NCBI GenBank assembly: GCA_965223735.1 | Contig: OZ245010.1 | Coordinates: 1,712,397-1,776,396, forward strand | From: Candidatus Oxydemutatoraceae bacterium | GTDB lineage: Bacteria; Pseudomonadota; Gammaproteobacteria; Poriferisulfidales; Oxydemutatoraceae | Direction: 5' to 3' | DNA length: 64,000 nt | In this document: piece by piece, positions 12,700 through 16,447 of the stretch | Numbering within the stretch: position 1 is the stretch's first letter | How the letters are laid out: each line of letters starts with the position of its first letter | Translations under genes and position numbers: made by a program | The notes under the pieces: generated by a model | The model's database searches: none | What the model was told of the DNA's origin: nothing | The model's input: only the letters and a program-made list of their open reading frames with translations

Positions 12700-12915
12700 A
12701 CGGTGCGTGCTGTGAAGGTGTCGGCGGCGCCGGCTCGTTTCTGTGCTTGCGGCTCAACGTCACCGGCAGGCGTTGTGAAAATGACGACGGCGCGTGCTGT
12801 GAAGGTGTCGGCGATGGGCATTGTGTGTGAAGGTGTCAGCGGTGCCGGCTCGTTTCCGTGCTTGCGGCTCAATGTCACCGGCGGGCGTTGTGAAGATGAC
12901 GATGGTAGGCGCGAT
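12700..12915. repeat. Intergenic tandem repeat, 2 x ~113 bp, between lgt and thyA
   Basis: The unit gccggctcgtttc[t/c]gtgcttgcggctcaa[c/t]gtcaccggc[a/g]ggcgttgtgaa[a/g]atgacga occurs twice (about 12730 and about 12843), together with repeated gctgtgaaggtgtcggcg. Confidence 0.6.
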
Positions 12916-12942
12916 GACCCGTGCTGAACCGTACTGCTCTCC

Positions 12943-13755
12943 GTGTTATTGGCGGCTGTCGTGAAAGCGTATCTTGAACTGCTGTCTGCCGTGCTTGAAC
13001 GCGGCGTCGCCAAAGACGACCGCACCGGCACCGGCACACGCTCGCTGTTCGGTTGGCAGTCGCGTTATGACCTCGCGCAGGGTTTTCCGCTGGTGACGAC
13101 CAAGCGCGTGCATTTCAAATCGGTGGTGTATGAGTTGCTGTGGTTTTTGCGCGGCGACACCAACGTTGCTTATCTCAACTGCAATGGCGTGACGATCTGG
13201 GACGAGTGGGCCGACGAGGACGGCAACCTGGGGCCGATCTACGGCCGGCAGTGGCGCTCGTGGCCCGCACCGAACATGATGTACATTGATCAGATGCAGC
13301 AGGTGGTGGAAGACCTCCGCGCCGATCCCGATTCGCGTCGGCTGCTGGTGTGCGCGTGGAATGTCGGTGAACTTGAACTCATGCGCCTGCCGCCGTGCCA
13401 TGTGCTGTTCCAGTTTTACGCGGCGCACGGGCGCCTTTCATGCCAGCTTTATCAGCGAAGCGCCGACGTTTTTCTCGGGGTGCCGTTCAACATTGCGTCT
13501 TATTCACTGCTGACGCTGATGGTCGCGCAGGTGTGCGGTCTGAAACCAGGGGAGTTCGTCCACACTTTTGGTGACGTGCATCTTTACGACAGCCATGTTG
13601 CGCAGGCGCGCGAGCAGTTGCGGCGTATGCCGAAACCACTGCCGCGCATCGAACTCAATCCGCAGGTGCAAAACCTTTTCTCTTTCGGATACGACGACGT
13701 TCGCCTGCTCGACTACGAAGCGCATCCGCCGATCGCGGCACCGGTCGCCGTATGA
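12943..13755 (+). CDS. thyA: Thymidylate synthase (copy 1)
   Basis: Full-length ThyA: [16 protein letters not shown] (catalytic Cys), [26 protein letters not shown] at 12961 is an alternative start. Confidence 0.9.
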
Positions 13756-14255
13756 GCGACGCAACCCCGCCGCTGAACCTCACGCTGATCGTCGCGCACG
13801 CGCGCAACCGCGTGATCGGCAAAGACCATGCGATGCCGTGGCATTTGTCGGCGGATCTCAAGCGGTTCAGGCGGATCACGACCGGCAGGCCGGTGGTGAT
13901 GGGGCGCAGGACTTTCGAAACCCTCGCGCGGCCGTTGCCCGAACGACGCAATATCGTGCTCAGCCGCGACCCCGCGTACACTGCCGCCGGCTGCGAAGTC
14001 GTGCATGGCCTCGATGAACTGCACGCGTTGCTTGGCGATGAGGAATGTATGGTCATCGGCGGCGCAGAGGTGTACCGCCAGTGCCTGCCGCTGTGTCGGC
14101 GTATTCATCTTACGCTGGTGCAGGCCGAACCCGACGGTGACGTTTTCTTTCCGGAACTTGATAAAGGCGAGTGGCAGTGGGAGCAGGTGGGAGAACATTT
14201 CGCTGATGAGAAGAATGATTATGAGATGGTGTTTTGGGAGTTGCGGAGGAGGTGA
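13752..14255 (+). CDS. folA: Dihydrofolate reductase (copy 1)
   Basis: DHFR signature [23 protein letters not shown]...[16 protein letters not shown] overlap with thyA. Confidence 0.9.
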
Positions 14256-14294
14256 AATGGAGTTATCTAGATGTAGTTTCTTCCAATTTTTAAG

Positions 14295-14311
14295 CCCCCC
14301 CCCCCCCCCCC
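14295..14311 (+). repeat. Homopolymer tract (17 C) at the 3' junction of thyA-folA copy 1
   Basis: Seen directly in the sequence. Confidence 0.9.
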
Positions 14312-14657
14312 TGTTGTTAAAAAAAGTTTTGCATACTGAAGCCGTGGTTTCCCTGCAAACATTAAGCGGCTATACTGGAACCCTGCTGCGTTGATGAAGT
14401 GGGGCGCGAGGGCTTTCCGGTCAGAATCGCCGTTTTCGCGCTTGATCCGGGGGTCCTCGGGTTCAGGGGGGCGCCGGGGCGAAAACGACGCCCGGAGCGC
14501 GCGTATTTGAGGCGATCGGTACCCGGGCGGGGACTGGGCATACCCCCGATGTAATACAATCGGGGAAAATCAAGATTGATATATAATTCCAAAAACATTA
14601 ACCCCGCGGGGAGTCTCCCTACCGGGGAGTCTCCTTGCAGAACTGAGGAGAATGACG

Positions 14658-14831
14658 ATGGAAATAACTTTAGAAACCGTCTATGACAAGATCCAGGATT
14701 TGGATCGCAAGATTGACGAATCAAGAATCAAGACCACACAGTGGGTGGTCGGCATCTTCATCGGCGCGGTAGTGATCATCTCTGCCATTGCAGGCGTCTA
14801 TACCTCGGCTCTCATACTGCTGGCCAAGTAA
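14658..14831 (+). CDS. Small coiled-coil protein with a C-terminal TM helix (57 aa), XhlA/DUF1640-like
   Basis: MEITLETVYDKIQDLDRKIDESRIKTTQWVVGIFIGAVVIISAIAGVYTSALILLAK. RBS gaggag 8 nt upstream, a TATAAT box at about 14585-14590, and a terminator hairpin downstream. Local GC is far below backbone. Below the 60-aa ORF cut-off, so absent from the supplied track. Confidence 0.4.
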   Translation: MEITLETVYDKIQDLDRKIDESRIKTTQWVVGIFIGAVVIISAIAGVYTSALILLAK

Positions 14832-14881
14832 AAACCGGAAGCGGCTGACGACGCCGCGCCCTCAAAAGTCCATACATTTGT

Positions 14882-14906
14882 GCCCCGCTGATATGCGGGG
14901 CGTTTT
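14882..14906 (+). terminator. Rho-independent terminator hairpin
   Basis: gccccgc-tgatat-gcggggc followed by GTTTT. Confidence 0.5.
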
Positions 14907-15036
14907 CATCGGCGGAACAGCCCCGGTGATCCGTGGCCACCGGCCGGGTATCCCGCGCCGGAGCGACACCGCAGCGCCGCCCAGATACAGGACTTTAGCC
15001 GGGCGCGATGACCCGTGCTGAACCGTACTGCTCTCC

Positions 15037-15849
15037 GTGTTATTGGCGGCTGTCGTGAAAGCGTATCTTGAACTGCTGTCTGCCGTGCTTGAACGCGGCG
15101 TCGCCAAAGACGACCGCACCGGCACCGGCACGCGCTCGCTGTTCGGCTGGCAGTCGCGTTATGACCTCGCGCAGGGTTTTCCGCTGGTGACGACCAAGCG
15201 CGTGCATTTCAAATCGGTGGTGTATGAGTTGCTGTGGTTTTTGCGCGGCGACACCAACGTTGCTTATCTCAACCGCAACGGCGTGACGATCTGGGACGAG
15301 TGGGCCGACGAGGACGGCAACCTGGGGCCGATCTACGGCCGGCAGTGGCGCTCGTGGCCCGCGCCGAACATGATGTACATTGATCAAGTGCAGCAAGTGG
15401 TGGACGACCTCTGCGCCGACCCTGATTCGCGTCGGCTGCTGGTGTGCGCGTGGAACGTCGGTGAACTTGAATTCATGCACCTGCCGCCGTGTCATGTGCT
15501 GTTCCAGTTTTACGCGGCGCATGGGCGCCTTTCATGCCAGCTTTATCAGCGAAGCGCCGACGTTTTTCTCGGGGTGCCGTTCAACATTGCGTCTTATTCA
15601 CTGCTGACGCTGATGGTCGCACAGGTGTGCGGTCTGGAACCTGGGGAGTTCGTCCACACTTTCGGCGACGTGCACCTGTACGACAGCCATGTTGCGCAGG
15701 CGCGGGAGCAGTTGCGGCGTGCGCCGAAACCACTGCCGCGCATCGAACTCAATCCGCAGGTGCAGAACCTTTTCTCTTTCGGATACAATGACGTTCACCT
15801 GCTCGACTACGAAGCGCATCCGCCGATCGCGGCGCCGGTCGCCGTATGA
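15037..15849 (+). CDS. thyA: Thymidylate synthase (copy 2, about 97% identical to copy 1)
   Basis: Same architecture as copy 1. Differs by scattered synonymous and nonsynonymous substitutions, for example C->R in LNCNG and M->V in DQMQQ. Confidence 0.9.
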
Positions 15850-16349
15850 GCGACGCGACCCCGCCGTTGAACGTCACGCTGATCGTCGCACACGCGCGCA
15901 ACCGCGTGATCGGCAAAGACCATGCGATGGTGTGGCATTTGTCGGCGGATCTCAAGCGATTCAGGCGGATCACGACCGGCAGGCCGGTGGTGATGGGGCG
16001 CAGGACTTTCGAAACCCTCGCGCGGCCGTTGCCAGAACGACGCAATATCGTGCTCAGCCGCGACTTTGCGTACGTCGCTGCCGGTTGCGAAGTCATGCAC
16101 GCACTCGATGAACTGCACGTGTTGCCCGGCGATGAGGAATGTATGGTCATCGGCGGCGCAGAGGTGTACCGCCAGTGCCTGCCGCTGTGCCGGCGTATTC
16201 ATCTCACGCTGGTGCAGGCCGAACCCGACGGCGACGTTTTCTTTCCGGAGCTTGATAAAGGCGAGTGGCAGTGGGAGCAGGTGGGAGAGCATTCCGCTGA
16301 TGAGAAGAATGATTATGAGATGGTGTTTTGGGAATTGCGGAGGAGGTGA
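15846..16349 (+). CDS. folA: Dihydrofolate reductase (copy 2, diverged)
   Basis: Same as copy 1 but with AMPWHL->AMVWHL, DPAYT->DFAYV, VVHGL->VMHAL, ALLGD->VLPGD and EHFADE->EHSADE. Confidence 0.9.
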
Positions 16350-16447
16350 AGTGGAGTTATCTAGATGTAGTTTCTTCCCAATACTTTTTAATATGCCCCC
16401 CCCCTGATGCTGCTAGAAAAATTTGGAAGATGAGTTTAGTTTCTACC

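Follow-up and report, generated by a model that had tools for sequence, protein, structure and literature searches.

A probable tandem duplication of the thyA-folA operon at a defence-island hotspot in a Candidatus Oxydemutatoraceae chromosome

The stretch of DNA analysed here (64,000 nucleotides of contig OZ245010.1, referred to as the window) comes from the small, marine-type gammaproteobacterial genome of a Candidatus Oxydemutatoraceae bacterium and carries the genes for thymidylate synthase (TS; thyA) and dihydrofolate reductase (DHFR; folA) twice. The two thyA-folA units lie head to tail on one contig, in the order lgt, copy 1, a spacer that we call X, copy 2, and then an island followed by a cupin gene and apaH. 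An earlier, sequence-only reading of this DNA had proposed a tandem thyA-folA duplication, and two units that align without gaps at an offset of 2,094 nt (12908–14285 versus 15002–16379) were indeed found. Their identity is lower than the approximately 97% given by that reading: 64 mismatches (54 transitions and 10 transversions) over 1,378 nt correspond to 95.4%, and a gapped blastn match (12908–14303 versus 15002–16404; E = 0, far above chance) yields 94.9% over 1,403 nt. The homology starts at 12908 rather than at 12906.

Copy 1 of the duplicated unit spans positions 12908–14294 and copy 2 positions 15002–16395, both on the plus strand. Each comprises a 53-nt leader, thyA, folA, and an AT-rich tail of about 40 nt (39 nt in copy 1) with a C tract at its end, and in both copies the thyA stop codon and the folA start codon overlap as ATGA. 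The runs of 17 and 9 C residues that had been described were located on the plus strand at 14295–14311 (C17) and 16396–16404 (C9), at homologous positions of the two copies. However, the units do not end exactly at these runs, as had been thought, given that another 20–30 nt or so can still be aligned at about 75% identity and that the similarity stops a few bases before the clustered regularly interspaced short palindromic repeat (CRISPR) at 16448. The left-hand neighbour of copy 1 is the ancestral one, lgt (11864–12667), which is set apart from thyA copy 1 by a repeat-bearing spacer of 294 nt. The right-hand neighbour of copy 2 is a CRISPR–Cas island.

All four reading frames are intact, and the motifs and invariant positions that we checked are kept. 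The thyA genes (12961–13755 in copy 1 and 15055–15849 in copy 2, plus strand) each encode 264 amino acids from a GTG start codon, as in relatives, and their products differ at 10 positions, all of which are variable among relatives. Both ThyA proteins match PF00303 (390.8 bits for copy 1 and 390.6 bits for copy 2, cut-off 24.3) and NCBIfam NF002497 (447.5 and 445.7 bits, cut-off 327) over the full length. The catalytic cysteine of the PCH motif can be read in both translations, as can the RSAD and GDVHLY motifs, whose roles are presumably those that they have in E. coli ThyA. The folA genes (13752–14255 and 15846–16349, plus strand) each encode 167 amino acids, with 9 differences between the products. 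They score 193.1 (copy 1) and 187.6 bits (copy 2) against PF00186 (DHFR_1, cut-off 25) and 143 and 135.9 bits against the NCBIfam equivalog PRK10769 (type 3 DHFR, cut-off 168), so that Pfam and NCBIfam scores are near-equal between the copies for both enzymes. Residues W30, F39, G103, and G104, which are invariant in an alignment of 120 DHFR homologues, and the nearly invariant D35 are present in both FolA proteins and correspond to E. coli W22, F31, G95/G96, and D27.

As the sequence-only reading had stated, the differences between the copies are scattered and include both synonymous and nonsynonymous changes. By the Nei-Gojobori method, dS (synonymous divergence) is 0.119 and dN (nonsynonymous divergence) 0.0185 for thyA, with a dN/dS ratio of 0.16, and the corresponding values for folA are 0.174, 0.032, and 0.18. 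Ratios near 0.17 argue for constraint on both copies through most of their divergence. A maximum-chi-square analysis places a breakpoint at nucleotide 361 of the unit, with 1.1% divergence to its left and 5.9% to its right (identities of 98.9% and 94.1%; permutation p = 0.01). The near identity of these 361 nt at the 5′ end suggests partial gene conversion between co-resident copies, and inter-strain recombination could also yield such a breakpoint. When the amino acid differences were polarised with five outgroups, the derived changes in ThyA were symmetric (about three in copy 1 and about four in copy 2). In FolA, zero to one derived change was assigned to copy 1 and four to five to copy 2 (P29V, P74F, G86A, L94P, and perhaps position 150). 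Several of the FolA2 changes span two or three bases of a codon, and a dense patch at codons 74–94 (16065–16127) includes multi-nucleotide changes such as CCC to TTT and ACT to GTC. Within this patch, four of the five outgroups are closer to copy 1 than to copy 2; the changes in copy 2 are therefore mostly unique, and import of the patch from a sampled relative was rejected.

One of the derived changes, P29V, falls at the position equivalent to P21 of E. coli DHFR, in agreement with what had been claimed for copy 2. Codon 29 is CCG in copy 1 (13836–13838), encoding proline as in relatives, and GTG in copy 2 (15930–15932). Query residues 10–167 align to residues 2–159 of the E. coli enzyme over spans of equal length, and the offset of 8 used to convert the numbering was derived from the coordinates of these aligned spans. 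That E. coli P21L marks a trimethoprim-resistance position, another point of the sequence-only reading, is documented: the substitution raises the half-maximal inhibitory concentration (IC50) of trimethoprim about 11-fold, and the turnover number (kcat) is kept (PMC6020862). Position 29 is proline in 116 of the 120 aligned homologues, including all close relatives, and V, L, or I in the other four, three of which carry I or L and are distinct from FolA2.

The location of P29V, the resistance conferred by P21L with kcat retained, the rarity of residues other than proline, the four to five lineage-specific and partly multi-base changes in FolA2 against zero to one in FolA1, and the intactness of both genes of the TS–DHFR unit could all be accommodated if copy 2 encoded a dedicated antifolate-insensitive DHFR, serving resistance or self-protection, with its own thymidylate synthase and kept by antifolates in the habitat. 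We regard this explanation as unlikely. The published figures are for leucine, and a literature search on P21V returned nothing relevant. No NCBIfam curated Dfr resistance family reached its cut-off; the best was DfrA3, at 158 bits for copy 1 and 147 bits for copy 2 against a cut-off of 350, and it is copy 1 that scores higher. Two of the three other DHFRs with I or L at position 29, P0113 (I) and P0066 (L), were examined and are found in ordinary contexts with no second copy within the stretch examined, so P29V is unusual yet not diagnostic of a resistance paralogue. Moreover, the rate asymmetry between the FolA copies is not significant, and no antifolate biosynthesis genes were seen in the window.

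A related proposal is that the second operon is a maintained, distinct TS–DHFR module, such that the cell has one efficient pair and one pair tolerant of antifolates made in its habitat, owing to P21V together with changes in the adenosine-binding subdomain. We consider this rather improbable. The idea of antifolate tolerance is somewhat weakened by the I- and L-bearing enzymes in ordinary contexts and by the missed Dfr cut-offs. If true, the tolerant second operon would be a naturally occurring counterpart, on the chromosome, to acquired dfr genes and would derive from the host's own operon.

Spacer X (14312–15001, plus strand) separates the two units. It had been described as an AT-rich insert of 700 bp with a small open reading frame (ORF). 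The ORF is present (59 codons, 14652–14831, plus strand), but the 690-bp spacer is not AT-rich overall, with 56% GC; AT-richer parts in or near it are 14256–14400 (46% GC) and 14560–14860 (50% GC). The first 20–30 nt or so of X are those that align with the sequence after C9. Beyond them, X has no homologue in the window, in 86 loci including those of relatives, or in plasmids or phages, and there is no second copy of X in the window. The product of the ORF, ORF59, is a small orphan protein whose N-terminal half is polar and whose C-terminal segment is hydrophobic; GAGGAG lies upstream of its gene. Among 5.8 billion proteins it has no homologue but itself, and it gave no Pfam match and weak PHROG matches. 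A search of X against Rfam yielded, as its sole match, a sub-threshold, terminator-like isrJ. A GC hairpin followed by a short T run is visible by eye downstream of ORF59 at 14882–14906, although it is not listed by the terminator scan. In addition, GGGGAGTCTCC occurs twice within 14600–14640, with starts 17 nt apart, just upstream of the ORF59 ribosome-binding site, and could be an operator-like direct repeat. Judged by its sequence, X is unique, gene-like DNA that is free of N runs and adapters and has no gap or shared repeat.

The closest relatives by DHFR in a scan of genome representatives, at 80–81% identity, are a Ca. Oxydemutatoraceae chromosome (L001) and a Chromatiales metagenome-assembled genome (MAG; L002). 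Ca. Oxydemutatoraceae is placed under Chromatiales in the NCBI taxonomy, and Oxydemutator thiolithooxidans, which is assigned to this family, has been described as a sponge symbiont (PMC11685487). The duplication was sought in these two and three further relatives (L081, L082, and L083), the five being from Ca. Oxydemutatoraceae and other Chromatiales MAGs, and none of the five has it: each carries a single lgt-thyA-folA set with lgt and thyA adjacent. The lgt-thyA pairing and the folA-apaH neighbourhood are arrangements that we take to be those of E. coli as well. The interval after folA holds different cargo in different relatives. In L002, folA is followed by a cupin gene and then apaH with no other genes between them; L081 carries HNH, GmrSD, and GIY-YIG nucleases (6503–12106), L083 a different type II-C CRISPR–Cas locus (6832–12498), and L082 two unknown genes (2169–4240). 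Because the cargo differs among the relatives examined, the folA-apaH interval is an insertion hotspot for defence islands in the family. In the window, about 12 kb of islands lie between folA2 and apaH (28140–28955), with the duplication at the left edge of the interval and with the cupin gene that directly follows folA in L002 at 22134–22448.

Based on these findings, we conclude that the thyA-folA pair is probably a genuine segmental duplication, with a period of 2,094 bp, in the chromosome of a Ca. Oxydemutatoraceae relative. The sequence-only reading had offered either a genuine paralog pair or the tandem mis-joining of strains, and the former is favoured by the single contig, the unique spacer, the flanks, the homogenised 5′ end, and the repeats typical of the family. 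Both FolA alleles (P0001 for copy 2 and P0002 for copy 1) are found on one contig of 1,846,438 bp in NCBI/ENA, a length that suggests a long-read assembly with reads able to span 3.5 kb. Because relatives have a single lgt-thyA-folA set, copy 1 can be said to retain just the left one of the two ancestral flanks and copy 2 just the right one, an arrangement that one event explains, whereas a mis-join needs two separately rearranged strains. Furthermore, diverged tandem repeats of 89–265 bp with 74–97% identity occur at five other places in the window, and repeats of 127–344 bp occur in four independently assembled relatives (L001, L002, L081, and L083). This recurrence makes tandem duplication with slow loss of copies seem typical of the family. 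A comparable scar of flank duplication, the apaH 3′ fragment at the neighbouring island (24038–24154), also favours a real structure.

Alternatively, the arrangement could be an assembly artefact in which the haplotypes of two strains that occur together, about 95% identical and with one thyA-folA set apiece, were placed in tandem. The source is evidently a MAG, as are all the relatives, and a divergence of 4.6% with dN/dS near 0.17 resembles that of orthologues from two close lineages. ThyA copy 2 shares F140, H142, and E195 with L002, and copy 1 shares L140 and R142 with L001; a one-base homopolymer frameshift in the neighbouring cas9 gene could be a sequencing error. However, the join has neither a gap nor a shared repeat, and instead contains the 690-bp gene-like spacer. 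A mis-join would require that X replaces lgt in front of thyA in one strain and replaces the island behind folA in the other, and lgt and thyA are adjacent in five of five relatives. The 1.85-Mb contig suggests long reads that would span the 3.5-kb structure, and short diverged tandem repeats that are not explicable as haplotype artefacts abound nearby and in relatives. We therefore consider such a mis-join very unlikely.

It is also conceivable that copy 2 is real but silent, a decaying and unexpressed by-product of island insertion. The hairpin after ORF59, between the coding part of X and thyA copy 2, the failure to find a promoter-like site, and the larger number of derived changes in FolA2, including the replacement of two prolines, are consistent with this view. 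In contrast, both frames are intact over 1.3 kb, the dN/dS of about 0.17 indicates constraint over most of the divergence, and in ThyA the changes are distributed symmetrically over the two copies. For a genome of 61% GC such a promoter scan is uninformative; it found none anywhere in 12600–16500. A silent copy 2 thus seems highly improbable to us.

An integron cassette or a Tn4003-like module was also considered and set aside, since no integrase, attC site, or flanking insertion sequence (IS) was seen, with no dedicated further search made. A two-colour poly-G read-end artefact, which the sequence-only reading had raised as a possible source of the homopolymers, was rejected because the position of the C tract in one copy is homologous to that in the other and because a third tract, G18 (61569–61586), lies in unremarkable intergenic DNA, at a distance of about 170 nt upstream of a gene for an ammonium transporter (61757–63154). 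There are three G/C tracts of at least 9 nt in the 64 kb of the window (C17, C9, and G18) versus two G9 runs in 1.22 Mb of other gammaproteobacterial loci. These tracts look like a biological peculiarity of the source genome and not like read-end artefacts, and they may be hypermutable (phase-variable).

For the genuine duplication that we favour, two routes of origin can be proposed. By the first route, a plain tandem duplication of a 2,094-bp unit (thyA-folA-tail-X) would have created a junction at 15001|15002, after which insertion of the CRISPR–Cas island, at a point about 40 nt beyond the second unit's C tract, would have removed the second copy of X. By the other route, a fragment comprising thyA2, folA2, and the CRISPR island would have been imported from a sister lineage of about 95% identity; its right end would have entered by homologous recombination and its left end by an illegitimate join, leaving the resident operon and X in place. 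Import would account for the divergence without the need for a long-lived tandem pair, and the ThyA states that copy 2 has in common with L002 and copy 1 with L001 lean slightly towards import or old polymorphism. Both routes fit the structure of the locus.

Several points weigh against a genuine duplication or against parts of this account. The structure rests on one assembly, and the nearest other DHFR among 5.8 billion clustered proteins is 81% identical. Two scans of JGI metagenomes, one with the shared leader and one with the CRISPR repeat, gave no match, and exact-protein look-ups for both FolA alleles found no independent assembly. Tandem copies of 95% identity are normally unstable, and thus their long persistence needs selection or weak recombination. 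The promoter scan detected no promoter for copy 2, and the excess of derived changes in this copy (eight versus three amino acids) is not significant in a relative-rate test worked by hand (chi-square about 2.3). Finally, plain duplication requires an additional deletion of the second X, and import requires an unsampled donor lineage.

If the duplication is genuine, the cell would carry two complete, translationally coupled TS/DHFR pairs, both with housekeeping function. Joint duplication would keep the ratio of TS to DHFR balanced, which is important because TS activity must not exceed DHFR activity and the coupling of the two enzymes constitutes an adaptive unit (bioRxiv 10.1101/120006). Copy 2 probably requires a promoter of its own, given the terminator-like hairpin downstream of ORF59. 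On a speculative note, FolA2 may bind diaminopyrimidine-type antifolates less well, owing to P21V in the Met20 loop together with several substitutions in the adenosine-binding subdomain.

The other tandem repeats in the window include one of about 115 bp between lgt and thyA copy 1 (12649–12905, plus strand), with about 2.3 units of 80–91% identity, the last partial unit of which enters the first 20 nt or so of the duplicated unit. Further repeats are present at 8892–9540 (three units of 215 bp), 31869–32453 (four to five units of 117 bp), and 48811–48987 (two units of 89 bp). A triplicated unit of 265 bp at 29992–30805, whose later units are 97% and 74% identical to the first in gapless register, spans the 5′ end of rsmA/ksgA (29351–30220, minus strand) and the sequence upstream, such that the promoter-proximal part of the gene is present three times.

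The CRISPR array (16448–17010, plus strand) begins 43 nt after C9 and consists of nine identical 36-nt repeats and eight spacers of 29–30 nt. It is followed by cas2, cas1, and cas9 of type II-C (17059–21481, minus strand), in an island of 38–42% GC between folA2 and the cupin gene. Cas9 scores 566 bits against TIGR01865, and the Cas1 (cas1_NMENI) and Cas2 matches score 285 and 79.5 bits; no csn2, cas4, or further cas ORF was seen at the island. Just upstream of cas9, 23 nt at 21417–21439 (plus strand) are perfectly complementary to the 3′ part of the CRISPR repeat and are likely the tracrRNA anti-repeat that would complete a type II-C system. At its end, the CRISPR repeat has the −10-like box TATACT, a feature that is presumably comparable to that of Neisseria-type II-C arrays. 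The cas9 gene is split into ORFs of 972 and 131 amino acids that are rejoined by one base less in an A6 run (T6 on the plus strand, 18635–18640), so the split reflects either a true frameshift that inactivates the gene or a sequencing error in the homopolymer. The CRISPR spacers have no match in the window beyond 11–13 nt and hence do not self-target within it. We entertained and dropped the idea that the copy 1 tail contains a degenerate CRISPR repeat, with the breakpoint at a repeat-spacer junction, because the alignment scores did not exceed those of shuffled sequences (p = 0.2–0.4).

A second island, between the cupin gene and apaH, encodes an HTH-M78 protein, a RecQ-family helicase (24245–26326), and a DprA-like protein (26330–28135) with repeated C-terminal segments. 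On the far side of a 4-kb insert that encodes the helicase and the DprA-like protein, a degraded fragment of the apaH 3′ end (24038–24154) matches 28146–28382 at 87–89% identity with an internal deletion. By this sequence match, we take the fragment to be a flank-duplication scar of island insertion.

Compared with the lgt-thyA-folA…apaH order of Gammaproteobacteria, the locus has the same genes, order, ATGA overlap, and Pfam and NCBIfam families, but it contains two operon copies offset by 2,094 bp, lgt and thyA are separated by 294 nt, and about 12 kb of islands precede apaH. Tn4003-type thyE-dfrA modules of staphylococci link a thymidylate synthase gene to a second DHFR gene. The present locus resembles such modules, and mobile Dfr determinants, in this linkage; however, it has no flanking IS elements, its copy 2 is 95% identical to the host operon, and its FolA scores fall far under the Dfr cut-offs. 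Amplification of folA leading to trimethoprim tolerance, and the TS–DHFR unit described in bioRxiv 10.1101/120006, are similar in that an extra copy of a drug target is present and that both enzymes are duplicated together. Laboratory amplifications are young, identical, and unstable, whereas here 4.6% of sites differ (dS 0.12–0.17), a unique spacer separates the copies, and there is no known drug selection. FolA2 is like the E. coli P21L enzyme (PMC6020862) in having a hydrophobic residue in place of proline at the same Met20-loop position. Unlike that enzyme, FolA2 carries valine, is encoded by a second copy beside one that bears proline, and has a background estimated to be about 40% identical to the E. 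coli protein. A parallel to import may be homology-facilitated illegitimate recombination, the one-sided form of homologous recombination defined in PMC3240628, in which a diverged copy of the core flank is likewise left by an imported island; the apaH scar at the neighbouring island is similar. Here, such an event would be deduced from sequence, and the left junction lacks informative microhomology.

The locus is best read as a gene duplication of an ordinary kind, though well preserved, at a hotspot for islands, a modest and lineage-specific curiosity. If genuine, it would be a clean natural case of a TS–DHFR unit that was duplicated whole and then diverged, with one DHFR altered at a position known for trimethoprim resistance in the laboratory and the clinic. 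It would also illustrate how core genes that flank a hotspot can be left in diverged copies when an island inserts there, copies that in MAGs may be mistaken for strain chimeras.

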